64,000 bases of DNA from Candidatus Iainarchaeum sp. (GTDB taxonomy: Archaea; Iainarchaeota; Iainarchaeia; Iainarchaeales; GCA-2688035), in contig NZBU01000009.1 in the NCBI GenBank assembly GCA_002688035.1, positions 25,929 through 89,928 of the forward strand, read 5' to 3'. Shown here piece by piece: positions 14,162 to 61,807 of the stretch (its first letter is position 1; every line of letters begins with the position of its first letter). The notes under the pieces were generated by a model. That model saw nothing but the letters and a program-made list of their open reading frames with translations. It did not search any database and was not told the origin of the DNA. The position numbers were made by a program, and so were the translations under genes.

Positions 14162-15310
14162 TTATGGTAAGAAATCCTTTTCCTTGATTTTCTTTGGCAA
14201 ATATTCTGTTGCAACGAACTCAAGGCTTTTGTTGGCGAGAGCTTGCTGTTCTATTCTGATCTTTTCTCTTATTGCTTTTTTGAGTTGGTTCTGCCATAGC
14301 TTATTTTTAAACCAAGGATACTCCAACATTTCCTTTGCACGTTTGATATCTCCGTCTTTCATTCTCTCAGTTACATTCTCTAGTCCATATGTTTCAACAT
14401 CGTGCAAAGTCATTCCAACATATTGGGCCTCAGGGCATGCTAGGTACTGTGAGTGCGCTGCGAGTGCCATTGAACCCTGTTTTATAACACTGTAAATATA
14501 CCAGCCATAAGGGTCACCATCTGTAAACACTATTACCGGGAGTTTTTTCTCGGAGTTAAGTCTATTGATAAGTCTCCTTGTTCCCCTTGCAGCCTGTCCT
14601 CCTGTACTGACAAGTATGCAATGGTTCTTCTTTGCAAACTGCTCCTCAACAAGCCTTTCATACATTGCCTCGGTCTCAATCACTAGAACATACTTTGCGT
14701 TAACACTGACAATCTCTATTTCCTCGGGCTCAAGGCGTGACATTACGCTCCAGCCACCCCTTCCAAGCTTTGCACAGTTGAACTTGTCATTGTGATGCAT
14801 TTTATCCTTGAGTGTAATATCTCCATAAAGTGTCCCCTTTGGGTTTGCATGCAAGTTGAGCTTTTCGCGAATTGTGTTAACACTGTGTTCCAGGTCAACA
14901 ATTACAGCATCACTCTCTGTTTGTCCGTCAAAAGTGTTCTCTTTGCTGTTTGGAACAGTGTGCTTTAACTCATAATAAACTTCTCTGATTGAAGCAGTCT
15001 TGTTCTGATTTAAGTAGTCACGGGTCTTTGCGGCAACCATTGTTGTCTGCATGAACTTTCTTGCGTGTCCAATGTTCAAAAAGTTTCTCGTGGTCTCTTT
15101 ATCTCCAAGTGTAAGAATTCCTCTGTCCTCATCAAATTCTACATTGCTTCTGCCTCTCAACTGGGTTTTGAATGACGGATCTTTTCCCTTTTTGATGTCG
15201 GCAACCATTCCATCCCCTATCCCCTCCAGCTTCTTCGCAATCTGCTTTGGGGTTTCTTTTCCCTTACTTTTTGCCTTTGGCTTTCTTGTCTTTGCCTTCA
15301 TCATCTTCAC
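14162..15310 (-). CDS. top6A: DNA topoisomerase VI subunit A (Spo11 homolog) with a K-rich N-terminal tail
   Basis: This is a TopoVI-A/Spo11 family protein with 5Y-CAP and Toprim regions (VIVFTDGDPYGWYI). It is adjacent to top6B. Confidence 0.85.
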   Translation of the reverse strand: MKMMKAKTRKPKAKSKGKETPKQIAKKLEGIGDGMVADIKKGKDPSFKTQLRGRSNVEFDEDRGILTLGDKETTRNFLNIGHARKFMQTTMVAAKTRDYLNQNKTASIREVYYELKHTVPNSKENTFDGQTESDAVIVDLEHSVNTIREKLNLHANPKGTLYGDITLKDKMHHNDKFNCAKLGRGGWSVMSRLEPEEIEIVSVNAKYVLVIETEAMYERLVEEQFAKKNHCILVSTGGQAARGTRRLINRLNSEKKLPVIVFTDGDPYGWYIYSVIKQGSMALAAHSQYLACPEAQYVGMTLHDVETYGLENVTERMKDGDIKRAKEMLEYPWFKNKLWQNQLKKAIREKIRIEQQALANKSLEFVATEYLPKKIKEKDFLP

Positions 15311-16964
15311 CCTTTTTGTTTTCTTCAGTGCTGTTTTCCTCTAGCTCCTCAACCTCTTCGGCTTCATCAAGTCTCAATTTCTCAAGAACCATTGTTTCAA
15401 GTTTTTTCTGCAGCAACTTTTTGTCAGTTCCTGTTAACTCGTTCAAGGCCATAACTATTTCAGGAATGTATTTGTAGAACAATTCTCTCTTAAGCTGCTT
15501 CTCGCGCTCCTTTCTCTTACCACTAATATAGCGCCCTGCTTTCCTGCCGGACTGCATCAAAGCAAGTCTGATTTCCTCAATAACTTCGTCTTCATCAGCT
15601 ATAGCTTGTTTGCCGGCTCCAGTGTAGGGAATGTGCACTGAAACAAAATTGACAAGGACAGTAAGAGGCGCTTTGTCAACATCTTTTATGTCATAGCGCT
15701 TCCAGTCAATGCTGTGCACAGACTTTGTGATTGCACAGTTTCCCGCGTCAAATAAAAGTGGTGCGCGATTCGCAAACCTCATAATTTCAAGTCTTTTCTC
15801 CATTCCCTCTGCACCCGAAACAGTTCTGCCTGCTTTTCCGCCATAAGCTATTGCTATCTCAACTTGAAAAGGAAATCCTCCAGCATAAACCTGTGGCCTT
15901 CTTGTAAGAACTGTTAAAAATTCTGGATCAACAATACTTTGTAAGCTCTTTCCAACTTGCGCCTCGCCAATTGGCCTTAGTGCATCTCCGCCAGGTGAGA
16001 TAAAATCAACTTCTTTGAATGCGTTAATTAACTGCTCTGCCTCATCCCAGCCCAGTTGCCTAGGGTCTTTATTGAGGTCAAATTGGACTTTTTTACCTAT
16101 TGACTCAACACTTTTTTGACCCATCCTATCAAAATCTTTTTTCAGGAAGCTGATAACTTTTCTTGAATCAGTATATTTTGCAAGTGTAACAATTTCATCA
16201 ACAGTAACTCCTTTTGGATGGGGCTTCACAACTTTTGGTCTTTCAGGAACTTTGTTCAGTGTTCGTTTAAAAGTAATCTTTTGTCCGGCAGGATCCCTAA
16301 AACTTATTTGGGCATGTGGGTTTGCAATAGCAGTTCTACGCAAATACTCCAAGGCCCCCTGCTCACTATCCCTGTACAGGACTCCCTTAAACTTGGCTTG
16401 AACAGCCAATCCTCTAAAATTCTTTGTCAAATCTTTCTTGTTTGCAATCTTTGGCTCATTCCTCTTTGGATCAATGCTCAGTTGCAGTGAGATAGTCTTG
16501 CCGTCTCCTGTCCCGGTAATAACCTTTATTGGTTTCCCTGTAGTCATTTGACTAAGCATTGTACAGCCACTTGACCCAATTCCCTGCTGTCCTCTGCTCT
16601 GCATCATTCTGTGGAACTTTGTTCCGGCCAAAAGTTTTCCAAGGGCCTTTCCAACTGTTTCCTCTGTTAACCCTGGTCCATTGTCTTTGATCGTAATCTC
16701 GTAATACTCTGAACCAAGTTCGTCAATCTTAACATCGATGTCAGGGAGAATGTTTGCTTCCTCGCAGGCATCCAAAGAATTTGTTACATATTCGTGAATA
16801 ACCGTTGTAAGTGTTCTAACTTTTCCATAAAGCCCTAGCATCTGCTTGTTCTTTTTGAAGAACTCTGCAACACTGTGCTCTTTGAACTCTTTGGATAGCT
16901 CTTCAGCGTCAACTATTTTTCCCGCCAGCTTATCCTCAAGTTTTCCGTCAGCCATTTTTTTCAC
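15264..16964 (-). CDS. top6B: DNA topoisomerase VI subunit B
   Basis: This is a GHKL ATPase (NGPGL, GQQGIGSSG). Its length and its pairing with top6A support the call. Confidence 0.85.
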   Translation of the reverse strand: MKKMADGKLEDKLAGKIVDAEELSKEFKEHSVAEFFKKNKQMLGLYGKVRTLTTVIHEYVTNSLDACEEANILPDIDVKIDELGSEYYEITIKDNGPGLTEETVGKALGKLLAGTKFHRMMQSRGQQGIGSSGCTMLSQMTTGKPIKVITGTGDGKTISLQLSIDPKRNEPKIANKKDLTKNFRGLAVQAKFKGVLYRDSEQGALEYLRRTAIANPHAQISFRDPAGQKITFKRTLNKVPERPKVVKPHPKGVTVDEIVTLAKYTDSRKVISFLKKDFDRMGQKSVESIGKKVQFDLNKDPRQLGWDEAEQLINAFKEVDFISPGGDALRPIGEAQVGKSLQSIVDPEFLTVLTRRPQVYAGGFPFQVEIAIAYGGKAGRTVSGAEGMEKRLEIMRFANRAPLLFDAGNCAITKSVHSIDWKRYDIKDVDKAPLTVLVNFVSVHIPYTGAGKQAIADEDEVIEEIRLALMQSGRKAGRYISGKRKEREKQLKRELFYKYIPEIVMALNELTGTDKKLLQKKLETMVLEKLRLDEAEEVEELEENSTEENKKGEDDEGKDKKAKGKK

Positions 16965-17504
16965 CTATAACTCAAATTTGCTTGATTCAATTTCTTTTCT
17001 CTTCAAAAATCCTAATACACTACTATGCTTTGCTCCGCCCAACAACATTTCTATTGCTCGTCTTGCATTCTCTACATTTTCAACATTGCCAATTATGGAA
17101 ACCGTTTTTCCGTAAACAGAAATAAAACAGTTCGTTGATTGCTCAATACTGTCCCTGGCTTTTCCTTTTCTGCCAATTATCCTGCCTTTCTTGACTTCTA
17201 ACTGTTTTTTGCTTCCGCCAACTATTTCGGCAAGGTCAATTATGTCAAGATAATTTTCCTCATCTGAAAGCAAAAAGGCCTTTTCAGGCGCAAAACCGCG
17301 CCCAATAGCTTTGATGATGCTAAGTGCATTATAAAAATCTAATCCCTTTTCCTTTGCCTCAATCAAGACATTTCCTGTTTCACTTTCCACATTGACCTTG
17401 GTGTTGGTGAGTTTCTCTATTTTCTGCTTAATCCGCCCGTTTTTTCCGATCAAAGCGGCAATTCTTTCCTTTGGAATTTTGATTGATTCATCCATAAAAA
17501 CCAC
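16965..17504 (-). CDS. KH-domain RNA-binding protein (Dim2/Pno1-like, two KH domains)
   Basis: Two KH motifs are present, IGKNGRIKQKIE and IIGRKGKARDSIE. It is adjacent to the RIO kinase. Confidence 0.7.
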   Translation of the reverse strand: MVFMDESIKIPKERIAALIGKNGRIKQKIEKLTNTKVNVESETGNVLIEAKEKGLDFYNALSIIKAIGRGFAPEKAFLLSDEENYLDIIDLAEIVGGSKKQLEVKKGRIIGRKGKARDSIEQSTNCFISVYGKTVSIIGNVENVENARRAIEMLLGGAKHSSVLGFLKRKEIESSKFEL

Positions 17505-17586
17505 TAGAAGGGCTTTTTTACGGCTCTATATATTAATAAATGATATATAAGGTTATAAAGCTTTCGTGAAACCGCTTCACAGGATT

Positions 17587-18417
17587 CTATTTCTTAAATA
17601 AGGCTTTTTTTGCCTTTATTTCGTCCATCAAGGACTCTTTAGTTATTTTTAGGCCCTTTTTCCTCAGATAATTGCTTATATTGGTTATATCTCTCTCAAA
17701 AAAGCTTTTTGCTTCGGGGTGTGAGTTCAATACTGCTTGCGCACAATCAATTACCACTAATTCGCCGTTTTTGTTCAGTATATTGTACTCTGATATATCT
17801 GAATGGATCAATTCTGCCTTGAAAAGCATTTTTGCTAAGAAATCCACCAATGTGGAGTGCAATTTCTCCACATCCTCCAAGGGTTTCTCCTTTAATCTTG
17901 GGCTAGCTTCACCTTTTTTCCCCACAAACTCCATGACCAGAACATTGTTTTGGAATGCCAGTGGTAAAGGGGCTCTAACCCCAATCTTATGCAATAGTAG
18001 CAAGTTCTTGAACTCTTTTTTTGTCCAAGCATAGACAAGGCTTCTGCGCGTCTTCTTTACCCTTCCAAATCTTACGTCTCCCTCAATATACTGGGACATG
18101 CGCTTGAAGTCAGTTGTCTCAATCTTGTAGATTTTTACTGCGCGAAAATTCCCAGTCCTATCTCGTGCCCTGAAGACATGGGCTTCTTTTCCAGTGCTTA
18201 TCACAAATTCTAGAACATCAAAGTAACCCTTTGAAGCGAGCGCATGCACAGACTCGATTGTCTGCCTGTCAAAGACCTTTGCAAAGATCTTTCTTGCGCT
18301 ATCATCAGGCACAAATTTCATCAGACTGAATTCCTCTTTTTTCTCCTCTTTCATTAAAAAAGGTTGGAGAGAGCAGTATTTATTATTAAGTGGAACAATT
18401 CTTTGCTCCAAAAACAA
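17587..18417 (-). CDS. rio1: RIO-type serine protein kinase (Rio1)
   Basis: ISTGKEAHVF, LVMEFVG and IHSDISEYNIL are RIO-family motifs. Confidence 0.8.
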   Translation of the reverse strand: MFLEQRIVPLNNKYCSLQPFLMKEEKKEEFSLMKFVPDDSARKIFAKVFDRQTIESVHALASKGYFDVLEFVISTGKEAHVFRARDRTGNFRAVKIYKIETTDFKRMSQYIEGDVRFGRVKKTRRSLVYAWTKKEFKNLLLLHKIGVRAPLPLAFQNNVLVMEFVGKKGEASPRLKEKPLEDVEKLHSTLVDFLAKMLFKAELIHSDISEYNILNKNGELVVIDCAQAVLNSHPEAKSFFERDITNISNYLRKKGLKITKESLMDEIKAKKALFKK

Positions 18418-18446
18418 ATTTAAACCAGTTCAACACTATTTACTTT

Positions 18447-19463
18447 ATGGCAAAGGCAAGAAGAAAATCTACCCAGAACATGACACTTAGGTTTGGTGAT
18501 AAATCTGCTTTGCGCTTCTCGCAGATAAGGGAGCTCTACTTAAAACGCGATGCATGGAAAGGCATAAAGCCTGAGCAGATGCGCGCAAGACTCGAAAAGA
18601 TGCGTGCAGAATTTGAGAAAGTGGACAGTGCACTTACAAGGCTTCGCGGAGGCGAAAGCCCGGCATCAATTGGTAAAAGCATTGGTGTTGGAGCGGACAC
18701 GATTACAAAGTGGGCGGCAGGCAAACAACTGCCAAGATCTATCTCTTCCAAAATGCTGCAATCCAACCTGGCTCGCAGAAAAAAATATATTACTGAAGTG
18801 GCAATGAAAAGTCCTAGAACCGCGTATCTTCTTGGAATTAGGATGACCGGGCAAATGGGGGCCTATGCAGGAAGAAGAGGCGGAATGTCTATAATGCTTG
18901 ACGTGAAAAAAGGCACCATTGAAAAAGAAGTTAAAAGCGCCTTCGAATCTGTCTTCCACCCGCACATCGAGGAAACTGCAAAGAGGCATAGTAATGTTGA
19001 TTCATCCGCTCTTAGAGTTAGTGCCACTGAGATAGGCCAGTTCCTAAATCGCACTACTTTTTATGGCAGGCAAATTCCGGAAAGATTTCTTAGAACAAAG
19101 GCTGCGAGAAGGCAATTTGCCATGGCCTTGGTTGATGCAAGTGCCTTTCCATTCCAAAAGTCTCGTGCAGGAAGAAAAAAACAGACACGCGGAATTCTTC
19201 TCAGGACAAGTAATCGCGAAATCCGTGATTACCTTGCAAAAACACTAACAAAATTTGGAATAGAGAATAATCCAAGAGGCGGTGCAATTCTCTCCAAAGA
19301 AGAGAAGTGGCGAGAATTCAAAGAAGGTGAAGCCCCTAAAAGAGGAAAAAGATTTTCATTATATATTCCGGAAAAGGCTTTTGCAAAATTCCAAAAAGAA
19401 ATCGGTTTTAGGGATAAAGAAAAAGAAAGGAAGCTTGCCCGTTTTCTTGGACAAGCCTCCTAA
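18447..19463 (+). CDS. HTH plus degenerate double LAGLIDADG-fold protein (likely nuclease-dead)
   Basis: The N-terminus has the HTH ASIGKSIGVGADTITKW. Two LAGLIDADG-like motifs follow, AYLLGIRMTGQMG and FAMALVDASAF. Both lack the acidic residue at the catalytic position. Confidence 0.45.
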   Translation: MAKARRKSTQNMTLRFGDKSALRFSQIRELYLKRDAWKGIKPEQMRARLEKMRAEFEKVDSALTRLRGGESPASIGKSIGVGADTITKWAAGKQLPRSISSKMLQSNLARRKKYITEVAMKSPRTAYLLGIRMTGQMGAYAGRRGGMSIMLDVKKGTIEKEVKSAFESVFHPHIEETAKRHSNVDSSALRVSATEIGQFLNRTTFYGRQIPERFLRTKAARRQFAMALVDASAFPFQKSRAGRKKQTRGILLRTSNREIRDYLAKTLTKFGIENNPRGGAILSKEEKWREFKEGEAPKRGKRFSLYIPEKAFAKFQKEIGFRDKEKERKLARFLGQAS

Positions 19464-19474
19464 ACTAGGGGGAG

Positions 19475-21427
19475 TTATTCGAAAACAAATTCTTTTAACT
19501 CTTCCAAATTGTCAAGAGAGTTTGCTTTCAGCACTTGGTTTGACAGGGTGTAGAGCACATTTCCAATATACAGGCTGCGCTTTACACTGTAGTCGTCGCC
19601 AAAGTAGTAACCTCTCTTCAGCTCGTCTTCCTCTGTGACATGAGTTATCCTTCCTCTTTCCTCAAAGCCGTTCTCAAGCGTTAACTTGAAAACAAATGCT
19701 CCTTGGAAAACTGGTTCGCCGTAAGCAGGCCAATCTGGATTCCATTCAGGCTTTTTGTAGTCCTCAGGAATCTCTGCCAGCATTATTGGCAGAACCAAGA
19801 GATCCTTTTCCTTGTCATAAAGGAAAGCCTTGTGGTCTCTTAGAGCATAGCTGTCTGTTCCTCTGTCCCCAATAACAATCTTGTGCATCTCCTTGGGGTT
19901 GGCAACATCGCTTACATCAAAGACCGCCATCTTAAGGCCCTGATACCATGCAAAGTCTCCTTTCACAGACTCGATTGCTTCCTTACCCACACCAATCAAA
20001 TGTGTTTCATCAATTGGATGCAGGTAGTCAGAGTAACCTGGAATCTTTAGCTTTCCAAGTACTCTAGGGTTGGTTGGATCGCTCACATCAATTACAAACA
20101 AGGGATCAGCTTTCTTGAAAGTAACCATGTATGCTTTGTTGCCCATGAACCTTGCACTGTAAATGCTTTCTCCAGGAGCCAAATCCTCTAGGCTTCCTAT
20201 AGTGTTCATTTCCTTGTCGAGCACATACAGGTTGTTGTATCCATTCCAGCCAACCGTTGTCGCAATTCTGAAATTGCTGTTAAATTCGTCCATGGAAAAC
20301 TGGTTTAGGATGCGGCCAGGAACGCTTCCCTGTCCAAGAAAACCAATCTTTCCGTTATCCAGTCCGAATTTGTTTATTACTGTGTTCTCTACGTCTCCTA
20401 CTATTATCTCGCTTGCCTCTCTTGCGATAGGAATATCTGTTACAGGTTTCCAGATTGTACCGGCCAGATAAATATTGGTCTGTGAGGCAAAGACATTTTG
20501 TGCATTACCCACAATTGTTTCTTTCTCTGTTTCCGCGGTCTGCAGGTTTATCGAACTTATTGTGATAAAGTTCTGTGCAGGCATTGGCGCTATGTAACCA
20601 ATCTCTGTTGCCTCTGCAACCTTCTTCTCCACGCCATCCTCTCGCATTAGAGGAATGATATCTTTCTCTGCGTCTCCTTCCAAAATTCTGTAGTCAGGCC
20701 AACTTGTGACAACAAAGTATGCGTCATCCTCAATAAGTCTTGAGGAAATATAGTTGCCCTGAAACTCAAGTTCTTTATCAAGAACTGGATTGCTTCGATC
20801 TGAAATATCGTAGAGTTGAACCAGCACGTTAGAACTTCTGCCCCAACAACCAAGGCAGTCTACCATTGATTCTACCGCAATTCCTGGTGCGCCAGTTCTT
20901 TTGTCCTCATACTCGTATGTCCTGTACTTGTTTCCAAACAACAAGAGTTTGTCGCCTGAAATAAACATTTCTATTGGATTGATTTCCTCCAATTTTGTCT
21001 GCGAAGCTATCTTTGCAGTGTTAATTGGATAGGCATCGGTTATAACCAAACTTTTTCTTGTAAGATTGTAGATATATTTTCCATCGCTCTTTACAATATC
21101 TGCTTCATCCACACCCTCAACTTGTACATTGGTCGTGGAGAAATCCGAGCTTCCACCATCCTTGGCTGCTCCAACGGCACTTTCACTCATGGCCATTGGT
21201 GCGCCAAGTGTTCTCATTGTAGTATTCATTATTCCGTACTGTCTGCCTTCTGCTCTTGCTTGCTCAAATGCTGAGACAAGTGCAGCATGGCTATCGAATC
21301 GCGGAATTTCCTTGAATTGAACCCCATCAATTTCTCCGGGTTCTATTCCAAGGAGCATTGAAAAACCAAAGACCGCGACTCCAATTACTATTAGAAGGCC
21401 TAATAATTCTAATCTTGAATTCATCAA
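19475..21427 (-). CDS. secreted or membrane-anchored beta-propeller-domain protein
   Basis: There is an N-terminal TM/signal (LLGLLIVIGVAVFGF). The large ~600-aa extracytoplasmic domain has the repetitive strand pattern of the archaeal/bacterial beta-propeller family. Confidence 0.45.
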   Translation of the reverse strand: MMNSRLELLGLLIVIGVAVFGFSMLLGIEPGEIDGVQFKEIPRFDSHAALVSAFEQARAEGRQYGIMNTTMRTLGAPMAMSESAVGAAKDGGSSDFSTTNVQVEGVDEADIVKSDGKYIYNLTRKSLVITDAYPINTAKIASQTKLEEINPIEMFISGDKLLLFGNKYRTYEYEDKRTGAPGIAVESMVDCLGCWGRSSNVLVQLYDISDRSNPVLDKELEFQGNYISSRLIEDDAYFVVTSWPDYRILEGDAEKDIIPLMREDGVEKKVAEATEIGYIAPMPAQNFITISSINLQTAETEKETIVGNAQNVFASQTNIYLAGTIWKPVTDIPIAREASEIIVGDVENTVINKFGLDNGKIGFLGQGSVPGRILNQFSMDEFNSNFRIATTVGWNGYNNLYVLDKEMNTIGSLEDLAPGESIYSARFMGNKAYMVTFKKADPLFVIDVSDPTNPRVLGKLKIPGYSDYLHPIDETHLIGVGKEAIESVKGDFAWYQGLKMAVFDVSDVANPKEMHKIVIGDRGTDSYALRDHKAFLYDKEKDLLVLPIMLAEIPEDYKKPEWNPDWPAYGEPVFQGAFVFKLTLENGFEERGRITHVTEEDELKRGYYFGDDYSVKRSLYIGNVLYTLSNQVLKANSLDNLEELKEFVFE

Positions 21428-21513
21428 GTATCACCCGAAACAATTATACGCTCCGGTATTTAAATACTGCTTTTTTTGTTTAGGTGAACACCTAAGGATA
21501 CAAATTAGCGGGC

Positions 21514-21843
21514 CTATATTGACAGGCCTTCCAAATGCCCGTTCCTTCTCAACCATTCTACTTGGTTTCCCAAAAAGCGCCAAACGACATCTGCTTTGCT
21601 TGGCTGGAAATCCCAAAGCTTTACTATTACCAAATCGTTCTGGCGCATCCAAACACGCTTCCTCATTTTTCCAGGGATTCTGCACATTCTCTCTTGGCCG
21701 TCGGCACAGGCAATTCTAATCTGGTTTGAACCATGCAACTGTGCTACAATACCAAACATTTCCCCCTCATCTTCATGCGGGAGCCTAACCCTTGTTATTG
21801 GCGCCTCCGGAGTCTTCTTTTTTTTATGTGATCTTCGCTGCAT
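21514..21843 (-). CDS. eif1a: translation initiation factor 1A (aIF-1A)
   Basis: GEMFGIVAQLHGSNQIRIACADGQERMCRIPGKMRKRVWMRQNDLVIV is the eIF1A S1 fold. Confidence 0.85.
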   Translation of the reverse strand: MQRRSHKKKKTPEAPITRVRLPHEDEGEMFGIVAQLHGSNQIRIACADGQERMCRIPGKMRKRVWMRQNDLVIVKLWDFQPSKADVVWRFLGNQVEWLRRNGHLEGLSI

Positions 21844-24288: not shown

Positions 24289-26496
24289 TTAGCTTCTGTG
24301 AGTTGGCTTTAGGAAGCCGTGCCTTGGCTTATAAATTTCACCTTTCTTCTCAAGCTTGTCAATTATATCGCGGGCTTTATCCTCATCAATGCCCTCGGTC
24401 TTTGCTTCCTCAAGAACTTCCTGTAAAGGCACCATATCTACATCGGCAGCCTTACTCTTTACAATCCCTAGGATCTTCTTCATGTTTGTTATCTGTGTGT
24501 GAGTCTGCCCTGTGGCAATAATATCATAATCAATCTTTCCTGTCTCAGGGTCAGTAACCATATCTTTCAATGATGACCTAACAAGTCTAATTGCACGCGC
24601 CGCATCCTGTGGTTCAACCACATCACTTAGTCTTACTCGCGCCGAAGCCTCACTTAATCGCACGAGTCCTTCCAACTGCCTATGTGTTGCGGCATAACTT
24701 CCTTCATCCCTACCCATGTCCCTGAGTTCCAAGTAAAAGTCGTTTATCGCCTGTGTTGCTTCCATGCTTAGTATAGGGGAAACAGTTTGTCTTGCATATG
24801 AAATATATTTCCTAAGCATATCGGCATCAATTTCAGGGGTTGCAATTTTCTTTAGGGCCTCTTCCTCAGTCTTCTTCATTTTCTTTCCCTTTTTGGAGTA
24901 TTGGGAAATCATTTCCCCTAGTCTATGTGTTTTCAAAATGTGTGAAGAAATCTGCTCATCCTTTGTCCTGTCAAGAACATCTCTAATCATATAAAATAAG
25001 TCAAAGCGACTGATAAGTGTTGGAGGCAATTCTATTTGGGATATGAAAGGAGTGTATGGGTCAAAGCGCGAGAACTTCGGGTTTGCAGCAGCAAGAATAC
25101 TTGTGTCAGACTTGAACCTTGTAACAATTCCGGCTTTTGCAACAGAGACCATTCCCTGCTCCATTGCCTCGTGCAATGCAACTCTATCATCATTGTTCAT
25201 TTTATCTAACTCATCAGCCATACACAGTCCGCCGCTCGCCAAAACTAGTGCACCGGCCTTTAATGTCCAGCCGCCCTCGCCAAAATCGTCTTTGACTGCA
25301 GCCGCAGTCAAACCAACACCACTCGTTGTCCTGCCTGCGGTGTAAATGCTCTTCGGGGCAATACTGTTTGTTGCCTGCAAAATCTGTGATTTACCTGTTC
25401 CAGGATCACCGACAAGTAGAATGTGAACATTTCCTCTGATAGTCTGGTTTCCAGGCAGTTCCTTTTTTACTCCGCCAAACAATTGTAGTACAATGCTTTC
25501 TTTCACAGACTCATGCCCATAAATTGCAGGGGCAATGCTCCCAATAAGCATCTCATAAATCTTTGGGTCTTTGGACAGTTTTCTGATTTCTTTCTCTTCC
25601 TCAGGGAGGACCTCTACTTCCTCAAACTCGCGCTGGGTCTCCTCAACATGTAAGACCTCCAAAAACCTGCCGAAAACAATTTTCTTTCCCTGGGCTGGTG
25701 ACAACCTCAGTATTCCAACAAACCTCACAGTGTTTCCCGCGCTCACCTTGTGCACAAGATCGTCGCCCAAATAAACGTCAAGGTTTGAAGCCTGCTCATT
25801 ACCCTTAAGTTTTTCCAATGGCTCTTGGATTTTTATTTTTTGGTAATCAACAAATTCTGATTGGTTCTGAACAAGAGTAAAATCGCGGTGTCTGCACTCG
25901 CAGAAAGCCGGCTGCTTGAGCTCTTGTCCTTCCTGCGGCGTCTTGTAAGTATTTCCACAGCGTCTGCATTGCCATGTCGCAATTTTTAGTTTTGGAAGTG
26001 CATCAGTTATCTGACTTACCGCGCCCTCAACAGAAATTAGTTTGTTTAAATATTCTGAACCAATGTTTCTAACAAGAATCTCTCGATCCTTTGGAATGTT
26101 GTGGAAGCGAATGTGTGGTGCAAAGCTCTCAATTTCTAGAGCAGGGACTTCAACACTCTGTATTGCGGTTCGTGCAGCCTCAAGCAAATAGTCAGGGTTG
26201 TCAAGCAGCTCATCAGCCAATTCATAGTCAAACTCTTCCAATTCCTTGAAATCAATTTCAAGACTTCTCTTCTTAGGATACTCTGATACGCTACGCTCAA
26301 TGCGTGGTTTGCCAACGCTTTCAAAGAAGGCAAGGAACTTGGCCACATAAGGGTTTTCCTGGGGCTCGCGTTCCCTTTCAATACTTTTTTCATCCTGTTC
26401 CAACTTAACACCACTAATAATTGCCGTTTTACTGTTTAAAACTGCTTTCGAGAGACAGCGGATTTCCACTGTTCTATGCCCTTGTGCAATTTCCAC
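24289..26496 (-). CDS. mcm: minichromosome maintenance helicase MCM
   Basis: There is a zinc finger CRRCGNTYK..CECR, the Walker A GDPGTGKSQ, an arginine finger and a C-terminal wH. The protein is 735 aa. It starts with an alternative GTG start. Confidence 0.9.
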   Translation of the reverse strand: MEIAQGHRTVEIRCLSKAVLNSKTAIISGVKLEQDEKSIEREREPQENPYVAKFLAFFESVGKPRIERSVSEYPKKRSLEIDFKELEEFDYELADELLDNPDYLLEAARTAIQSVEVPALEIESFAPHIRFHNIPKDREILVRNIGSEYLNKLISVEGAVSQITDALPKLKIATWQCRRCGNTYKTPQEGQELKQPAFCECRHRDFTLVQNQSEFVDYQKIKIQEPLEKLKGNEQASNLDVYLGDDLVHKVSAGNTVRFVGILRLSPAQGKKIVFGRFLEVLHVEETQREFEEVEVLPEEEKEIRKLSKDPKIYEMLIGSIAPAIYGHESVKESIVLQLFGGVKKELPGNQTIRGNVHILLVGDPGTGKSQILQATNSIAPKSIYTAGRTTSGVGLTAAAVKDDFGEGGWTLKAGALVLASGGLCMADELDKMNNDDRVALHEAMEQGMVSVAKAGIVTRFKSDTSILAAANPKFSRFDPYTPFISQIELPPTLISRFDLFYMIRDVLDRTKDEQISSHILKTHRLGEMISQYSKKGKKMKKTEEEALKKIATPEIDADMLRKYISYARQTVSPILSMEATQAINDFYLELRDMGRDEGSYAATHRQLEGLVRLSEASARVRLSDVVEPQDAARAIRLVRSSLKDMVTDPETGKIDYDIIATGQTHTQITNMKKILGIVKSKAADVDMVPLQEVLEEAKTEGIDEDKARDIIDKLEKKGEIYKPRHGFLKPTHRS

Positions 26497-28637: not shown

Positions 28638-29384
28638 TTAAATAAAAGCCAGGGCAATGTAAGCCAATCCAAACACAATGCAGAAAATAGAGAAGTTTAT
28701 TTTCCTCGCAATGTTAATCAGAAAGTCGATTGAAGCATAACCCACAATTGCCGCAACAGCTATTGCAATCAGCATGTTGGGTTCGAAAGAAATGCCTTCA
28801 ATTGTGGCAAAAACAACTTCCGCCGCAAACACCGAGGGAATACTAAGCAGGAAAGATAACCTAAAAGCCTGTTCTGGATCAAAGTCCTCCATCAAGAGTA
28901 CGGCTGTCGTAATTCCACTTCTGCTTATACCAGGTATTACCGCAATTCCCTGCGCAAGCCCGGTGAGAAAACCATGTCCAACATTCTCCTTTCCCTGTGC
29001 AATCTTTTTCTTGAATTGTATTATACCTATTAGTATAAGTGCGGCTCCAACCAAAAGCATTACTAGAAAGGTGTCACCCATTACTCCCTTGAAAACGAGG
29101 TAGATTGGAATAGCAGTTATAGCTGAACCGATTAATGCTGTTAGAAAGAATTTTAGCAAAGGCTTATCCTTTAGCAACACTATTTCCACGAGCTCTTTGC
29201 GAAAGTACACTGTTGCTGCAATCAAAGTTCCAATATGCAGTGTGATAGCGTGCCTGAACGCTTCTTCCGCTGTAACTCCAAAGAGGCTTAGTGCAGCAAC
29301 CATTACCTGCCCCTGGCTACTTATTGGCAGCCACTCTGTAACGCCCTGTAACAATCCAAGGAACAACGCCTGTATTAAATCCAT
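28638..29384 (-). CDS. uppP: undecaprenyl-diphosphatase (BacA/UppP)
   Basis: It is an 8-TM protein. The motifs GISRSG and VSRSGITTA, and the N-terminus MDLIQALFLGLLQGVTEWLPISSQGQ, are typical of UppP. Confidence 0.8.
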   Translation of the reverse strand: MDLIQALFLGLLQGVTEWLPISSQGQVMVAALSLFGVTAEEAFRHAITLHIGTLIAATVYFRKELVEIVLLKDKPLLKFFLTALIGSAITAIPIYLVFKGVMGDTFLVMLLVGAALILIGIIQFKKKIAQGKENVGHGFLTGLAQGIAVIPGISRSGITTAVLLMEDFDPEQAFRLSFLLSIPSVFAAEVVFATIEGISFEPNMLIAIAVAAIVGYASIDFLINIARKINFSIFCIVFGLAYIALAFI

Positions 29385-29502
29385 GTAATTAAAACATTGT
29401 TAGCAGATTAAATACTTTTTCCCTCTATCCATTATTCGTTTCAGAATATTTGTTGCAGAATGTTATTTATTTTAGAATAAGTACTTTTTCTTATGGTGAG
29501 CG

Positions 29503-30648
29503 TTGTTGAGTGATGTAGTAATTGGGGATACCTTAGGCTCTGCCGTCGAAACGCCTAACTTACAGACTGTTTCTTTTTCAAAGAATATTCGCTTTCGGCT
29601 TGAGTCTGGCCAGCGCTTTGGTCCAATAAACATTGCATACAAAACATTTGGAAAATTGAACGAGGACAAATCAAACGCTGTTCTAATATTTCCAACACTT
29701 ACAGCCACGCCGCAGGTTGCATCAGAAAAAATTCGGGGCAAAGTTTTTCATGGGTGGTGGGAAGGGCTTGCGGGAAAAGGAAAAGTGATTGACACTAACA
29801 AGTTTTTTGTTATTTGTGCGGATCATTTTGGGGGATGCTACGGGAGTATTGGCCCAAGTTCTATAAATCCTGATACCGGAAAACCGTTTGGCTTAAAATT
29901 TCCGGGTTTTTTCATTCGTGATATGGTAAATGTTGTCATAGAATTTCTCAAGCACATTGGAGTAAGAAAATTGCACTCTGTTGTTGGTGCCAGCCTTGGT
30001 GGGCTTCTTTCTTTGGAATTGGTTGCCTTGAGCAAGAACATTGCAAAGAATGTGTTTGTGATCGGTTCTTCTCACAAGGTTTCCGCACAGTACCTTGCAC
30101 TGAACTATATTGCCCGGCAAGCAATAATGCTTGATCCTGCTTGACGCAATGGAAACTATTAGGGGGCATCATTTCCAGAGCAAGGTCTTTCTATTGCAAG
30201 GTAGATAGGGCACATTTCTTATCTTTGCCAGCCTCTTCTGGAAGAAAAGTTTGGCAGGCAAGGTTTTGGCAAAAAAATAAGAGATCATGTAAGCCTTGAC
30301 CGCCAATATCAGATTGAGAATTACCTTGACTACCAAGGAAAAAAGTTCTGCAAGCGCTTTGACCCAAACACCTACATTTATTTGTCAAAGGCAATTGACA
30401 CCTTTGATTTGGAGAAAGAGTTTGGCAGCATTGAAAATGCGTTTGCAAACACTAAAGCAAGAATTCAGTTTATTTCAATCTCTTCAGATCAACTATTTCT
30501 GCCAGAGCAAACAAAAAAACTACACAAAATCCTTCTTGCCTGCGGTGTTGATTCCAATTACAGTGAAATTGATTCTTTGAAGGGGCATGACGGGCTGTTC
30601 ATTGAGGATGACAAGACATCAAAGATAATTGGAGAAAAGTTAAAGTAG
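29503..30648 (+). pseudogene. metX: homoserine O-acetyltransferase (MetX) interrupted by three in-frame stop codons (TGA at 30142, TAG at 30160, TAG at 30202)
   Basis: A single reading frame gives a full-length MetX. The catalytic Ser (GASLGG), Asp (SSDQLF) and His (KGHDGLF) are intact. Three nonsense codons fall at positions that are W/F, Y and M/L in homologs. Confidence 0.7.
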
Positions 30649-30661
30649 ACACCGGCTTCTT

Positions 30662-31768
30662 TTAAGGCGAGTGCTTTAGTTTCTCTATTTCATAGAGTTT
30701 CTGCAAATCCCTGGCGTAAATAACTCCAATGAGTTCATGCTGTTGCACAATTGGAAAAATCGAGTAGCCCTTTGTCATAACTTTTTCCATAAGCTCTGCT
30801 GGATCAGCGTCAATCTGGACTGTGGGGAGTGGTTGCGCAACAGTCTTTGCTTTCACGTTTGGCCACTGCCCCCGTGGCATTTTCTCAAGTGTCTCAAAGC
30901 TAACTAGTCCAAAGCCCTGCCCCAATTTAACGAGCAGCGCAAGCCTCCGGTTCTGAATCATTGTCGCGAAAATATCCTGCAGGTTATCATCGCCCTGCAC
31001 AACCAAGGACCGTTTCTCAAGTATTGGTAATAGGCTTGTCCCCCTGAGTGTTTCCTTAATCTCAACTCTCTTGTTCTCTTGTTGCGAACCGAAGAAAATG
31101 AAGATTGCTATTACTGCAGCTATTATCGCGCCCTCCAAAAAACTTATTATAAACAGCAATACCGCAAGCACTATGCTCACTCTTGAAATAATTCTGGTTG
31201 CTTTCCTCCACCCTATAAAGTAGGCCAGCAAAGACCTTGCAACTCTCCCTCCATCCAGTGGGAGAGCTGGAAAGAAAAGATTGAATGCTCCAAGAACAAC
31301 ATTAACATAAAACAGGCTTAGCAAAGGGGATTCAAACACCGCTTCAAAACCAGCGTTTGCAGCAAGCTTTTCCAATCCAAGTGGAATGTTGAATACCGAA
31401 GCTATCACAAGTATTGATCCGGCAACAAAAAAATTGAACAATGGTCCGGCAATACTAACTTGAAATTCGTCTCCCGGCTTTTCAGGGAGAGATTCACTAA
31501 CACTTATTCCGCCAATTGGCAGCAAAATTATTTTCTGGACTTTGAAGCCTTTCTCCAACAGTACTACGCTGTGCGTGAGTTCATGGAAGAAAACTGAGAG
31601 GAAAAGAAAGAAGATGAAAATGAGTATAGGAATTATTCCTGACAACGGGAAAAGATTGCTGAATGAGAACAACAACATTACTGCAACAAGCAGTACTGCG
31701 CCAATCACAAAGCTGCTGTGCAACTCTATCGGGATTGAAAAGATTTTTCCTATTCTGAGCGAGCGCAT
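30662..31768 (-). CDS. site-2 protease (M50 family) with a C-terminal CBS pair
   Basis: The zinc motif HELTHS is present with multiple TM segments. The C-terminal CBS-like region is VVQGDDNLQDIFATMIQNRRLALLV. Confidence 0.75.
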   Translation of the reverse strand: MRSLRIGKIFSIPIELHSSFVIGAVLLVAVMLLFSFSNLFPLSGIIPILIFIFFLFLSVFFHELTHSVVLLEKGFKVQKIILLPIGGISVSESLPEKPGDEFQVSIAGPLFNFFVAGSILVIASVFNIPLGLEKLAANAGFEAVFESPLLSLFYVNVVLGAFNLFFPALPLDGGRVARSLLAYFIGWRKATRIISRVSIVLAVLLFIISFLEGAIIAAVIAIFIFFGSQQENKRVEIKETLRGTSLLPILEKRSLVVQGDDNLQDIFATMIQNRRLALLVKLGQGFGLVSFETLEKMPRGQWPNVKAKTVAQPLPTVQIDADPAELMEKVMTKGYSIFPIVQQHELIGVIYARDLQKLYEIEKLKHSP

Positions 31769-32612: not shown

Positions 32613-33251
32613 TTATTTAATTGTTTTGCACTGCATTTTGCCCAATGCATTCTTTGCAAGTGCCTCAATATCAAGCTCTTTTCCCTCAAAACCAATTTTT
32701 TCCTCTGTGGCCTTGGTAGCGGGCTTAACAGGAATAGAGCAGCAAGCGCTTGGCAAAATGCTTGTCTCAAACGTTCCAAATTTTCTTGCGAGCTTCTCTA
32801 TCTCCAGCTTGTCCATTCCAAGCAGCGGCTTTATTATTGGTAGGTCTGCAGCAGAGTGCTCTGCATTAAGGTTGTAGAGAGTCTGCGAGGCAACTTGCCC
32901 AAGGCTTTCTCCAGTGAGTAGGGCAGAAGCCTTCTCTTTCTCAGCAAGCTTTGATGCAATGTGCATCATCATTCGCCTGCATAGCACACAACTGTATTTT
33001 CTGTTAGCTTTTTTTGCAATCTCAAAGAGAGTTGGACCATGAGGTACAACGCAAACCTTGATTTCTTTTCCAAACTTTTTGCCGAGCAGTTTTGCAAGCT
33101 TCTCTGTCTTCTCAATGCCACGCGTGTTTCCAAGTGGTTTTGTGTCAAAGTGAAGCATCACAATATCCAATCCATTCTCAAGAGCCATGCTGCTAACAAC
33201 AGCACTATCAATTCCACCCGATACTAGTGCGATAATCTTAGTCATTTTCAA
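32613..33251 (-). CDS. ThiI-like PP-loop ATP pyrophosphatase domain protein (no THUMP domain)
   Basis: The PP-loop SGGIDSAV and the ThiI motif LTGESLGQVASQTL are present, with a CxxC near the C-terminus. The protein is 212 aa. Confidence 0.65.
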   Translation of the reverse strand: MKMTKIIALVSGGIDSAVVSSMALENGLDIVMLHFDTKPLGNTRGIEKTEKLAKLLGKKFGKEIKVCVVPHGPTLFEIAKKANRKYSCVLCRRMMMHIASKLAEKEKASALLTGESLGQVASQTLYNLNAEHSAADLPIIKPLLGMDKLEIEKLARKFGTFETSILPSACCSIPVKPATKATEEKIGFEGKELDIEALAKNALGKMQCKTIK

Positions 33252-37351: not shown

Positions 37352-39010
37352 TTGGCTATTTTCTATTCGGTTATGGCTAATAAAAAAAAGATTCTGATTG
37401 GCAGTGTCAAAAAACTTATTGCACTCAAAGTTCCTGATAAGGAGATTGTGGTTAACCTGCGTGATGTCGGCATTGATGAGAAGCAGGCAAAAAATTTAAT
37501 TAAACTTGCGAAGCAGACCCCCTCAGAGAAAGAAGTTAAGAAGCCCGAGTCTAATCCTGAACCAAAGCCACTACCAAAACCAGTTGCCAAAGAAGCCACT
37601 CCAAAGGTTGCTGAAGAAAAATCTCTTGATCAAATAAAGAATGAGTTGCAAAAGAAGGATTTTGTCAAGGATGAGAAGATGAGTGAGGGTGACAAAAAAA
37701 GTTTTTTTGAAAAGCTTGTAAATCGCTCTGCCAAAGAACCTTCAAAAAAGAGTAAGATTGATGAGATTGCAGAGGCAATTCAACCAAAAGTTGAGGGAGA
37801 GAAGCCAAAGCCTGTAGTCGAAATCCCTGCCCCAAAACCTGAGCCCAAATCAATTGAGCAGAAACCAATTCCGGCAGTGGTTCCCAAACCTGTTATGCCG
37901 CTTCCAAAATCTGCGGCTCAGCCAAAATCTGTTGTTCAACCCAAACCAATTCCGGCCCAAAGAACTTCATCACTTGATATTTCAAAACTATGGGAGAAAG
38001 GGATTCTCTCATCTGTTAATGACAAGCTCAAAGAAATAAAAGAGATAAAGGCGGATGTTGATATCGCGATCGAAAAAAGGGCCGATGAGGTAGCCAAAAA
38101 GGAGATTAACAAGATCCAGGTTTTGTTTGATTCCCAACAGAGTCTTTTCATGGAAAAAGTAAATGCAAAGTTGGATGAAAAAGGAAAAGAAGTTGAGGAA
38201 CTAATTGACAAGAAGATCGTGGAGATGAAGCAAACATCCTCCACACTCGAAAAGGAGATGGGTGACCTTGAGGTCAATAGAAAACAATACAAGGATTTCA
38301 TAAGCGAGATGACCACAAAGCTTACCGAGTTGGAGCACACCAAAAACAAGCTTGTGAGTGGAATGAATTCAGAGCTCATAAAATCGAAGAGCGAGATGCA
38401 AGAGTTCATGGATTCTTCTCAGAGCAAAGTAAGAGATATTGATGACAGGGTTAACAAAACTCTAGAAGTGGGTTTGAGTGTAATTGATGGTTTAAAGGTT
38501 GATGCTGAAACCCAATTAAAGGATTTTGCGATAAAGAGAAGTGATGACTTGAACCATGACATGCGCGAACAGTTGGGCGAGCTTAAGGATACTAAGGGTG
38601 CCTTTGAGAATCAGATAAAAGAGAATCTTGCCATGTTAAAGGAAATGAAGACAACGTATGAATCACAGATCGAGGGAAGATTAAAAAGGCTTGATCATTT
38701 AGAAGCAGCTATAAGGAAAGAGTTTGATCCCGCAATGTTCAAACAGCAGATGAATGACTTAGAGGGTTTCAAGCAGCAGTTTGTAAAGGTTATCGAGACA
38801 AATGTTGGCAAATTTAACCAGGCCATCCAGGAGATAAACGAGCAGGCCAATCAAGCCGAATCCAAGATAAACGGCCAAATAAGACTGATTGACAAGAAGA
38901 TGACAGAGCTTGACGAATTTGAGAAGACCTTTGCAGAAGAAATGGGTCTGTCAGTAGAAAAAGCCTTTGAGAAAAAGAAACAAGCCAAGTCAAAGAAAAA
39001 GAAGAAATAG
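37352..39010 (+). CDS. long coiled-coil protein with a Pro/Lys-rich linker and polylysine C-terminus
   Basis: The protein is 552 aa. It has a ~50-aa N-terminal domain, a PKP-repeat linker, then ~330 aa of heptad-like charged low-complexity sequence ending KKKQAKSKKKKK. Confidence 0.5.
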   Translation: MAIFYSVMANKKKILIGSVKKLIALKVPDKEIVVNLRDVGIDEKQAKNLIKLAKQTPSEKEVKKPESNPEPKPLPKPVAKEATPKVAEEKSLDQIKNELQKKDFVKDEKMSEGDKKSFFEKLVNRSAKEPSKKSKIDEIAEAIQPKVEGEKPKPVVEIPAPKPEPKSIEQKPIPAVVPKPVMPLPKSAAQPKSVVQPKPIPAQRTSSLDISKLWEKGILSSVNDKLKEIKEIKADVDIAIEKRADEVAKKEINKIQVLFDSQQSLFMEKVNAKLDEKGKEVEELIDKKIVEMKQTSSTLEKEMGDLEVNRKQYKDFISEMTTKLTELEHTKNKLVSGMNSELIKSKSEMQEFMDSSQSKVRDIDDRVNKTLEVGLSVIDGLKVDAETQLKDFAIKRSDDLNHDMREQLGELKDTKGAFENQIKENLAMLKEMKTTYESQIEGRLKRLDHLEAAIRKEFDPAMFKQQMNDLEGFKQQFVKVIETNVGKFNQAIQEINEQANQAESKINGQIRLIDKKMTELDEFEKTFAEEMGLSVEKAFEKKKQAKSKKKKK

Positions 39011-51047: not shown

Positions 51048-52778
51048 TTACTGCCCTGTTAAGAACTTTACAAGAGCTTCCAGGATATTTGGTGCGGCAG
51101 ACTGTTCAGGGGCTTTCTCACCCACTATTTCCGCGGCCTTTATTATTCCCCTGATTGGTTCTGTTGGACAGTCTTTTGCCTCAAAACCATCAGTGCACAC
51201 CTTTACTTCACATCCATTTGCACTCTCATAGGTCTTACATTCTACTGTTGATTCCTCTGTTTCTTCTTCCGGACAATCTTTTATTTCATAGCCATCAGTG
51301 CACTCCTTTATCTTACACCCGGCGTCATTAGTGTACTCCTTACACTCTACATCTGTTTCTTCTTCCGGACAATCTTTTACACTGTAACCGTTTGTACACT
51401 CTTTTACTTTACAGCCGTCCTCGTTCTCATACACCTTACACTCAATATCTTCGGTGCTGTCAGGACAAACTTTCTCTTTATCTCCGTTTGTGCACTCCTT
51501 TATTTTGCATCCGTTTTCAGTCTCATACTCTTTGCACTCAACAATTTCTCCAGGACATCTAACAAGTTCCTCTCCGTTTGTGCATGACTTTACTTTACAT
51601 CCGTCATCTCTCTCGTAGACTTTACACTCTACATCTTCTGTAGGGCAATCTCTAGTTTCATAGCCATTACTGCACCTTTTCACAGTGCATCCCTGCTCGT
51701 CCCTAAACTTCTTGCATTCTACGACAGGACAGACGTTTTGTAGTTTGCATGAGTTGAAAGTGTAACCGTCTGTGCATGATATCACAATACAGTCCCCTTC
51801 AACATATTTTTTGCACTCCACAGTGTCTGTTGTGGGTGGCTCCGCACAATTCACTTGTCTACATCCCTTGCTATCAACATAGGTTTCGTATTCAAGCTTG
51901 CGGTTCCTGCATGCATCTATCTTTCTGTCGATTGTACGTTCGTCAGGACAAATTATACCTGTTTTGATACACTCTATTTGTGCACAACTTGTTCCATCAA
52001 CATACTTTTGGTAGTCCATGCCTTGTACCCTGCATTTGGAGATTTGTCTGCCAATTTCTTCATCACTTGGACAAATTCTTTCTCTGCAGCGCGCCTGCCT
52101 ACAGTTGGCAGAATCTACATAGAACTGGTAGTCGAGTCCGCGAGCCTTACACTTGCGGATCATTGATTCAAGTGCGTTTCCTGTTGGGCAAGACGTTGTT
52201 GACTCAATACACTTAACATATTCACAGCCGTCTTCCACATAGTAAAGCCAAGGGGCGAGACTGTACTCTCCGCCCTTTACCTCTTTGCATGCCGCAACTT
52301 TGGCATCATTTTCTTCTTCGGTAGGGCATGAGCTCACAGGCGGTTTCACACACTCGATTTGCCTACAGCCTGAATTATCTGTAAATGTTTCATAGCCATA
52401 GCCAGCCTCTTTACATCTTACAATTTCTTGTTCAAGTTTTTCGCTTGTAGGGCAGACAATTGGTTTTATGCAGTTCACATATTTACAACCGTTCTCTTCA
52501 ATGTATATTTTGTACTGCATGTCATCTAGTTTACAAGCTCTTATTTTGTTTTCAATCTCTGTTTCCGAGGCGCAGATACTATTACACATACCCTCATACG
52601 CTACTTTAACCCCAGCAACATCAGCAAAACAATCATTACTGTATGTTTTATCATTTACTCCACAGACAGGATCATACTGTGCTGTGCATATAGTGTCCTG
52701 AGTCTCTACTGTTTCAGCACTAGTGGCTGCTAGTAGTAATACAAAAAACACTGCACTAAATCCAATTCTCTTATTCAT
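51048..52778 (-). CDS. secreted cysteine-rich multi-repeat protein with an N-terminal Kazal-like domain
   Basis: A signal peptide is present. CTAQYDPVCGVNDKTYSNDCF...GMC fits the Kazal core, including PVCG and KTY-N-C. About 6 repeats of ~45 aa follow, then about 7 repeats of ~27 aa of the form ECKxYExxDGCKVKxCTNGxExKDCP. Confidence 0.6.
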   Translation of the reverse strand: MNKRIGFSAVFFVLLLAATSAETVETQDTICTAQYDPVCGVNDKTYSNDCFADVAGVKVAYEGMCNSICASETEIENKIRACKLDDMQYKIYIEENGCKYVNCIKPIVCPTSEKLEQEIVRCKEAGYGYETFTDNSGCRQIECVKPPVSSCPTEEENDAKVAACKEVKGGEYSLAPWLYYVEDGCEYVKCIESTTSCPTGNALESMIRKCKARGLDYQFYVDSANCRQARCRERICPSDEEIGRQISKCRVQGMDYQKYVDGTSCAQIECIKTGIICPDERTIDRKIDACRNRKLEYETYVDSKGCRQVNCAEPPTTDTVECKKYVEGDCIVISCTDGYTFNSCKLQNVCPVVECKKFRDEQGCTVKRCSNGYETRDCPTEDVECKVYERDDGCKVKSCTNGEELVRCPGEIVECKEYETENGCKIKECTNGDKEKVCPDSTEDIECKVYENEDGCKVKECTNGYSVKDCPEEETDVECKEYTNDAGCKIKECTDGYEIKDCPEEETEESTVECKTYESANGCEVKVCTDGFEAKDCPTEPIRGIIKAAEIVGEKAPEQSAAPNILEALVKFLTGQ

Positions 52779-60603: not shown

Positions 60604-60608
60604 AAGGC

Positions 60609-61703: not shown

Positions 61704-61807
61704 TAGCCTGATTTAAATAACTTTACTTGTTTCTTTTCTAACCCGAACAGACTAAATCAACCTTTTAGTTGATTTTTTAACCTTTTCTTTTCTATTAAAT
61801 ATATTAG

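Follow-up and report, generated by a model that had tools for sequence, protein, structure and literature searches.

A probable recent metX pseudogene with three clustered in-frame stop codons in an uncultured marine Iainarchaeia archaeon

Introduction

Amino-acid biosynthesis is commonly missing in DPANN archaea. One DPANN genome, of the order ‘Ca. Norongarragalinales’, was found to be auxotrophic for most amino acids (PMC8561730). With respect to the origin of closely spaced mutations, short-range template switching is an established source of mutation clusters (PMC5453318, PMC8604942). The pseudogenes of textbooks carry scattered lesions together with deletions. The metX gene described here differs from them, with three stop codons in 21 codons and neither an indel nor measurable decay.

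We analyzed a 64,000-nucleotide stretch of DNA (the window, to which all coordinates refer) that contains a gene for homoserine O-acetyltransferase (metX) with three internal stop codons. This metX is very probably a real, non-functional, and recent pseudogene. Read in this way, it is an ordinary, young unitary pseudogene in a lineage undergoing genome reduction, with stop codons whose clustering is only mildly unusual.

Results and Discussion

Gene locus and neighborhood

The host is an uncultured marine Iainarchaeia/Diapherotrites (DPANN) archaeon. A Tara Oceans assembly holds the identical sequence of the metX locus, which indicates that the organism is marine. The window is dense with archaeal housekeeping genes, and an archaeal MCM helicase is encoded near metX (24289–26496). 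The features of the locus are as follows.

28638–29384, minus strand: BacA/UppP undecaprenyl-diphosphatase, intact, upstream of metX and divergent from it; used as the synteny anchor
29503–30648, plus strand: metX (homoserine O-acetyltransferase), probable pseudogene with a TTG start, a TAG end, and three internal stops
29503–30144, plus strand: the sole ORF likely to be translated (MAG22247.1), 213 codons and TGA
30382–30648, plus strand: leftover 88-codon ORF (MAG22248.1) in the metX frame, from the first TTG past stop 3
30662–31768, minus strand: M50 peptidase with a CBS domain, intact, downstream of metX and convergent with it

Relatives have the same gene order, MCM-MetRS-HIT-BacA-MetX, followed at a greater distance downstream by M50 or ThiI, and an uninterrupted metX lies beside MetRS, HIT, and BacA in L004–L007, L025, and L043. 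Because this gene order is common to the relatives, the metX of the window is the positional ortholog of their intact genes. In GenBank, the locus is split into MAG22247.1 (213 aa) and MAG22248.1 (88 aa), each annotated as a ‘hypothetical protein’. Their locus tags are CL943_03000 and CL943_03005, and the MAG is listed as ‘Candidatus Diapherotrites archaeon’. The UniRef label for the 88-aa piece is ‘Homoserine O-acetyltransferase’.

Reading frame and family assignment of MetX

The metX frame consists of 381 codons read in a single frame and ends at the natural terminator TAG (30646–30648). No frameshift was present along 29503–30648, as the preliminary description had claimed, and the peptide around the stops was the same as reported there, DPA*RNGNY*GASFPEQGLSIAR*IGHISYL (asterisks denote stops). 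After restoration of the stops, the protein scored 393.7 bits against the NCBIfam equivalog NF001209 (cutoff, 331) over profile positions 12–372 of 381, and fell under the stricter TIGR01392 cutoff (372.7 vs 500 bits). The conceptual protein aligned end to end with Haemophilus influenzae MetX (PDB 2b61; E = 7e-75).

The codons of the catalytic triad are located at 29992–29994 (Ser164), 30487–30489 (Asp329), and 30586–30588 (His362). The three columns were invariant in 22/22 aligned sequences, and the Ser lies within a GxSxGG motif. The passing of the NF001209 cutoff and the invariant triad columns bear out the earlier claim of a complete MetX with Ser, Asp, and His intact. The nearest intact orthologs with shared synteny were 65–70% identical to the window MetX. 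When the stops were masked, the closest proteins were uninterrupted sequences of 378–412 aa from ‘Candidatus Iainarchaeum’/Diapherotrites MAGs (57–70% identical), and the identity between bacterial and Iainarchaeia MetX was about 40–44%. From the family profile and the triad, the protein of the Iainarchaeia clade is predicted to be a MetX homoserine O-acetyltransferase.

Stop codons and the codons that they replace

The three stops lie inside 63 nt and correspond to the following positions.

30142–30144, plus strand: stop 1, TGA, at near-invariant Trp214; TGG in five of five orthologous DNAs
30160–30162, plus strand: stop 2, TAG, at Tyr220; TAC or TAT in orthologs
30202–30204, plus strand: stop 3, TAG, at clade-invariant Gln234; CAG in orthologs and Met in bacterial MetX

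All of the 18 close clade proteins and the five orthologous DNAs were uninterrupted, and at the sites of the stops the DNAs read TGG, TAC/TAT, and CAG. The ortholog comparison proposed in the preliminary description thus gave intact genes in related genomes, with TGG, TAY, and CAG where the window has stops. The Trp and Tyr that it had named among the homologous residues at stops 1 and 2 were recovered; in the close clade, the third is Gln (CAG) and not Met/Leu. It had also allowed one or two substitutions per stop, and exactly one is needed for each relative to the orthologous sense codons (G to A, C/T to G, and C to T). Stop 1 falls within three consecutive window-specific base changes at 30144–30146 (TGG AAC to TGA CGC), and the new G of stop 2 merges with the G run at 30163–30166. 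GTDB representatives, JGI metagenomes, and the protein database yielded no outgroup above ~70% amino-acid identity, and the ancestral bases were taken from orthologs at this distance. Since the nearest orthologs are only ~70% identical, the substitutions are not precisely polarized or dated, nor are they ordered.

In the preferred reading, the codons of Trp214, Tyr220, and Gln234, where the lid domain begins, would each have become a stop through a single-base substitution, and translation should terminate at codon 214. The 213-residue ORF that remains corresponds to the N-terminal α/β-hydrolase half, in which the nucleophile Ser164 is present and Asp329 and His362 are absent. A fragment that retains the Ser but not the other two triad residues would leave the enzyme dead. 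The 88-codon ORF (30382–30648) spans just the last quarter of the MetX protein and is not a plausible functional fragment.

The annotation of two ORFs (213 and 88 aa) by GenBank and by gene callers would also suit a split gene, with an active enzyme put together from the 213-aa N-terminal product and a separate C-terminal one. However, the first in-frame start past stop 3 is at 30382, so that residues 214–293 are lost, including more than 20 invariant positions of the lid domain, and no split orthologs were found among the relatives searched (GTDB representatives, JGI metagenomes, and the protein database). With these 80 conserved residues missing, a split functional gene is effectively refuted, and we give it next to no probability.

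Occurrence of the stop codons in other assemblies

The three stops are real in the genome and are not assembly errors. All three were present in L001 (ERZ11848503), a 107-kb contig from a separate ENA analysis that is 99.97% identical to the window over 6.6 kb, with two differences, both outside metX. L024 (ERZ841001), from a further analysis, spans 30002–30885 and carries all three stops, and stops 1 and 2 are present in L002 (ERZ5402418) and L003 (Tara ERR594290, MEGAHIT). Every assembly covering the stops reproduces them, and the GenBank MAG splits the gene likewise. The protein database searched contained neither a sense-codon allele nor a near-identical intact protein, and the search with the C-terminal part only gave nothing close among the best 50 candidates. 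The ‘variants’ in the protein cluster differ solely in the translation of the TTG start (M vs L).

L002 and L003 share a contig end at base 30181, between stops 2 and 3. A strain branch at 30181 was rejected, as L024 passes this base unchanged. The common end is most likely explained by the same low-coverage reads having been assembled by two pipelines. Because L002 and L003 have the same end point, the assemblies are perhaps not biologically independent; they may not all be independent samples, and Tara-type marine data may underlie every one of the sources.

The preliminary description had listed assembly error and strain heterogeneity among its four options, without choosing between them. 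Under this explanation, the stops would be a sequencing, assembly, or consensus artefact, or would belong to a minority strain, and the gene of the population would be intact. Its appeal lies in the metagenomic origin of the assembly and in the two short contigs that end at 30181, which could mark a branch of the assembly graph. It conflicts with the base-for-base agreement across the stops in five or more contigs, which derive from no fewer than four ENA analyses (SPAdes and MEGAHIT), where the window, L001, and L024 share three stops and L002 and L003 the first two. L024 crosses 30181 without change, the window and L001 differ elsewhere (2 in 6.6 kb) and are therefore not one consensus, and a sense-codon allele was missing from the protein database searched. 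We consider this explanation highly unlikely.

Conservation of MetX and age of the inactivation

The window MetX departs from the clade at 4 of the 116 non-stop columns that do not vary among 18 clade members (I11L, A184V, S273N, and T319A), and functional clade members depart 0–7 times at clade-invariant columns in leave-one-out controls. At the 72 columns invariant in 21 homologs, one change (S273N) was found in the window MetX, compared with 0–4 in the clade controls. The identity to the clade was 0.694 in the part before the stops and 0.628 in the part after them, and the resulting C-/N-terminal ratio of 0.906 is inside the range of functional orthologs (0.87–1.05). Relaxed selection on metX was not detected, in that damaging substitutions and indels were not in excess of those in functional orthologs, which is the single feature not typical of a pseudogene and agrees only with very recent inactivation.

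These results indicate that the gene had been called ‘fully conserved’ slightly too strongly, with four non-stop changes at clade-invariant columns, and that it stays within the functional range of 0–7. Since the conservation outside the stops is that of functional orthologs, the inactivation appears to be recent on a coarse scale. Very recent inactivation, one of the options in the preliminary description, agrees with this lack of any distinction from functional orthologs. The accompanying argument that decay should show scattered indels is true of old pseudogenes and does not exclude a young one.

Clustering of the stop codons

Neutral point mutation of the repaired gene was simulated with a transition/transversion kappa of 2 until three stops had arisen. 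The median run required 76 substitutions and 15 changes at invariant columns. The simulated probability that three stops span ≤20 codons was 0.009, that of ≤4 invariant-column changes given three stops was 0.06, and the joint probability of a tight span and few changes was 0.0008; these values are uncorrected for the picking of this case because of its odd look.

Lineage-specific substitutions numbered 5 over the 75 nt of the stop patch and up to 8 elsewhere in metX, so that the patch was not generally enriched in them. This argues against a heavily mutagenic patch, and a hypermutated patch was rejected for the want of enrichment there. In regard to local repeats, the following elements were found around the stops.

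30115–30123, plus strand: upstream arm CGGCAAGCA, complementary at 8/9 positions to 30138–30146
30128–30134 and 30138–30144, plus strand: direct repeat TGCTTGA; the stop-creating A30144 ends the second copy
30180–30186 and 30196–30202, plus strand: direct repeat GCAAGGT; the stop-creating T30202 ends the second copy
30091–30099 and 30195–30203, plus strand: perfect 9-nt inverted repeat TACCTTGCA/TGCAAGGTA, completed by T30202

Through the derived bases 30144 and 30202, local direct repeats of 6 nt become 7 nt long. The changes at 30145–30146 extend the inverted repeat with 30115–30123, and the stop-creating G30162 lengthens the adjoining G run. Only 6.8% of positions are inside local repeats of ≥7 nt. 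Of the stop-creating bases, two complete a local direct repeat of 7 nt and the third does not, compared with 2 of the 46 other lineage-specific substitutions (p≈0.015, post hoc). No single donor or switch event accounting for all three stops was found. The repeats at the stop sites hint at misalignment-templated mutation; primer-template misalignment or short-range template switching would give such a pattern.

GCAAGGT had 14 matches against 9.9 expected, which is not significant, and 4 of the 14 were within 175 nt of metX; a role as a genome-wide motif was rejected on these counts. A DGR-like or gene-conversion donor was also rejected, as the window contains no second copy of the patch and the annotated genes include no reverse transcriptase.

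The preliminary description had suggested a local mutational event. Such an event is compatible with the data: the clustering (p≈0.009), the three-base change, and the repeats speak for it weakly. Two accounts of the clustering are about equally likely. In the first, one or two local events, by repeat misalignment/template switching or through an error-prone repair patch, would have produced the stops as a by-product. In the second, independent hits would have fallen close together by chance and have been noticed because they look odd.

Genetic code and readthrough

The 58 large ORFs of the window terminate in TAA (32), TAG (17), and TGA (9). No interrupted gene was found among about 65 other Pfam-annotated genes of the window. 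An alternative genetic code was rejected on the terminator usage and these intact genes, and the host uses the standard genetic code. The tRNAs encoded in the window are Cys-GCA, Ala-GGC, and Val-GAC only, and a suppressor tRNA was not found within the 64 kb. Near the stops, no Rfam family was detected even at E ≤ 1, SECIS and Pyl-type elements included, and the local RNA fold was unremarkable (z-score, −0.4). Sec/Pyl recoding and a structured RNA were rejected on the basis of the missing Rfam element and the ordinary local fold. Two same-frame ORF pairs were considered as further readthrough genes and rejected: 15264–17525 consists of two separate genes, encoding Topo VI B and a KH protein, and the upstream stretch of 19475–21715 had no domain hit.

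Context-dependent readthrough had also been offered in the preliminary description. In this explanation, the stops are read as sense, either by their context or by suppressor tRNAs, and a functional full-length MetX is made. The conservation of the gene at the level of functional orthologs, downstream of the stops as well, the absence of frameshifts, and the low joint probability under neutral decay (0.0008) are all in its favor. On the other hand, metX itself terminates with TAG, and TAG and TGA are ordinary terminators that close 26 of the 58 large ORFs. None of the ~65 other window genes has an in-frame stop, and the Rfam search, the fold z-score (−0.4), and the tRNAs of the window revealed neither a recoding element nor a suppressor. 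Moreover, the stops comprise two stop codons and replace three different residues (W, Y, and Q), which no single recoding system fits; the yields of three successive leaky stops multiply to a negligible value; and 0/23 close orthologs have stops at these positions. Readthrough is thus very unlikely. A narrower form, in which the stops are decoded and metX is kept functional by suppressor tRNAs whose genes lie in another part of the genome or which a host provides, strikes us as highly improbable; decoding of the stops, if true, would account for the absence of decay in metX.

Loss of metX and the methionine pathway

In relatives, metX is a solitary gene that diverges from BacA and does not share an operon with metY. 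In the relative L045 (GCA_017610265.1), the MetRS-HIT-MetX order is kept and metX has a deletion of ~23 codons and a frameshift. The lost stretch corresponds to residues 36–58 of the window MetX, which contain the conserved FGPI...KTFG...SNAV motif. The L045 lesion is independent of the three stops of the window. A second, independent lesion indicates that metX has been lost repeatedly in this clade. Within the 64-kb window, an intact aspartate-semialdehyde dehydrogenase gene (asd) was present, and metY, metB, and metE were not found. The loss of metX would fit the ongoing loss of biosynthetic genes that is typical of DPANN archaea.

The loss might alternatively have been adaptive. After the loss of a downstream step, for example, MetX might have diverted acetyl-CoA and homoserine into a dead-end product and so have become harmful, and repeated nonsense mutations would have been selected to silence leaky expression. 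The number of stops is higher than the other damage predicts (P = 0.06 for ≤4 invariant-column changes with three stops), the loss in L045 was independent, and the window lacks metY and metB, as this explanation would have it. However, Asp329 and His362 are lost with the first early stop, to which stops 6 and 20 codons further on add nothing, and selection leaves the clustering of the stops unexplained. We regard adaptive loss as improbable.

Meaning of the metX lesions

MAG22247.1 and MAG22248.1 are best read as one metX pseudogene, and a metabolic reconstruction of this marine Iainarchaeia population that counts metX as present would be in error. Together, the lesions of the window and of L045 probably record that methionine biosynthesis is still being lost in a DPANN clade in which metX is mostly retained. 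If the clustering arose in one misalignment-type event, for which the evidence is weak, the gene would be a natural archaeal example of multi-hit mutation. No long-standing open question is affected by the finding.

Comparison with known systems

Compared with bacterial and archaeal MetX, such as PDB 2b61, the conceptual protein of the window is a full-length match that keeps Ser, Asp, and His. It differs in that the gene is predicted to be unable to make the full-length protein.

Archaeal Sec (UGA with SECIS) and Pyl (UAG) recoding resembles the present case in the occurrence of in-frame TGA and TAG within a conserved ORF. In contrast, the stops of metX replace W, Y, and Q and not Sec or Pyl positions, the window has neither a SECIS nor another such element, both codons are usual terminators, and the orthologs do not have the stops.

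Mutation clusters from template switching, quasipalindromes, and primer-template misalignment (PMC5453318, PMC8604942, bioRxiv 10.1101/2023.08.09.552703) share with metX the nearby substitutions, including one three-base run. Bases 30144 and 30202 extend direct repeats, and bases 30202 and 30145–30146 extend inverted repeats, as in these clusters. Stop 2 adjoins a G run, as expected of dislocation errors. Unlike the described clusters, no one event yields the three stops of metX, the repeats are only 7–9 nt long with a post hoc p≈0.015, and the ancestral sequence comes from orthologs that are ~70% identical.

The likeness to young nonsense pseudogenes of genome-reducing symbionts and parasites extends over several features: the metX of the window is point-mutated and annotated as fragment ORFs, its neighbors are intact, the gene of relatives is intact, and metX was lost independently in L045.

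Start codon and local sequence of metX

The interrupted metX gene of the window starts with TTG at 29503. An N-terminal leucine is on record for several metX orthologs of the same clade (P0001, P0006, P0012, P0016, and P0017), and non-ATG starts are common for metX of this clade. The TTG is thus normal for the clade and does not represent a further lesion. Counting both strands, four copies of the 7-mer GCAAGGT lie within 175 nt at metX (window 30092-30264), at 30092 (-), 30180, 30196, and 30258. Across the whole window the 7-mer was not enriched, with 14 matches versus 9.9 expected.

Short contigs covering metX

The first 41 nt of the short SPAdes contig L002 (ERZ5402418), compared with window 29360-29400, are an inverted copy of the adjoining downstream sequence. 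This initial inversion is a fold-back artefact, which is typical of low coverage. The terminal base of L002 is identical to that of L003, a MEGAHIT contig from Tara ERR594290, both corresponding to window position 30181. This common end suggests that the two contigs were derived from the same reads.

Interrupted metX in a related MAG

The metX gene is also interrupted in L045, a related Iainarchaeia MAG:

L045 3865-4951 (GCA_017610265.1, JAFCCH010000020.1): metX, interrupted

The lesion consists of a frameshift and a deletion of about 23 codons, equivalent to residues 36-58 in the window, and gene callers split the gene into ORFs of 57 and 316 aa. Either the clade contains a second metX pseudogene of independent origin, or the lesion is an assembly error of that MAG.

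Other genes of the window

A free-standing 261-aa ORF at 5760-6545 (+) contains a LAGLIDADG_3 (homing-endonuclease-like) domain and is flanked by the genes for CDP-alcohol phosphatidyltransferase and myo-inositol-1-phosphate synthase. The G+C content is 0.33 at 60001-62000 versus approximately 0.41-0.42 elsewhere. The gene at 60609-61703, which encodes an FAD-dependent oxidoreductase, lies within this stretch together with its flanking sequence. For several long ORFs of 275-576 aa, Pfam yielded no match at E <= 1e-5.

Long ORFs of the window without a Pfam match
18390-19463 (+)
37352-39010 (+)
51048-52778 (-)
53594-54592 (-)
61808-63492 (+)

ThiI-like functions are shared out between two window genes that lie 29 kb apart:

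2932-3867 (+): 311-aa protein with ThiI ferredoxin-like and THUMP domains
32613-33251 (-): 212-aa stand-alone protein, ThiI PP-loop domain

A PP-loop ThiI of about 208 aa, adjoining an arginase-family gene, is likewise stand-alone in L043 (10444-11070), a relative with an uninterrupted metX. Since the relative has this form too, the short PP-loop ThiI is conserved rather than broken.

The window also encodes an intact aspartate-semialdehyde dehydrogenase:

56310-57413 (-): aspartate-semialdehyde dehydrogenase of the bacterial 'asd_gamma' type

This protein is a candidate for horizontal acquisition by this DPANN archaeon from bacteria; its score was 556 bits on TIGR01745, whereas TIGR00978, the archaeal/eukaryotic type, gave just 83 bits.
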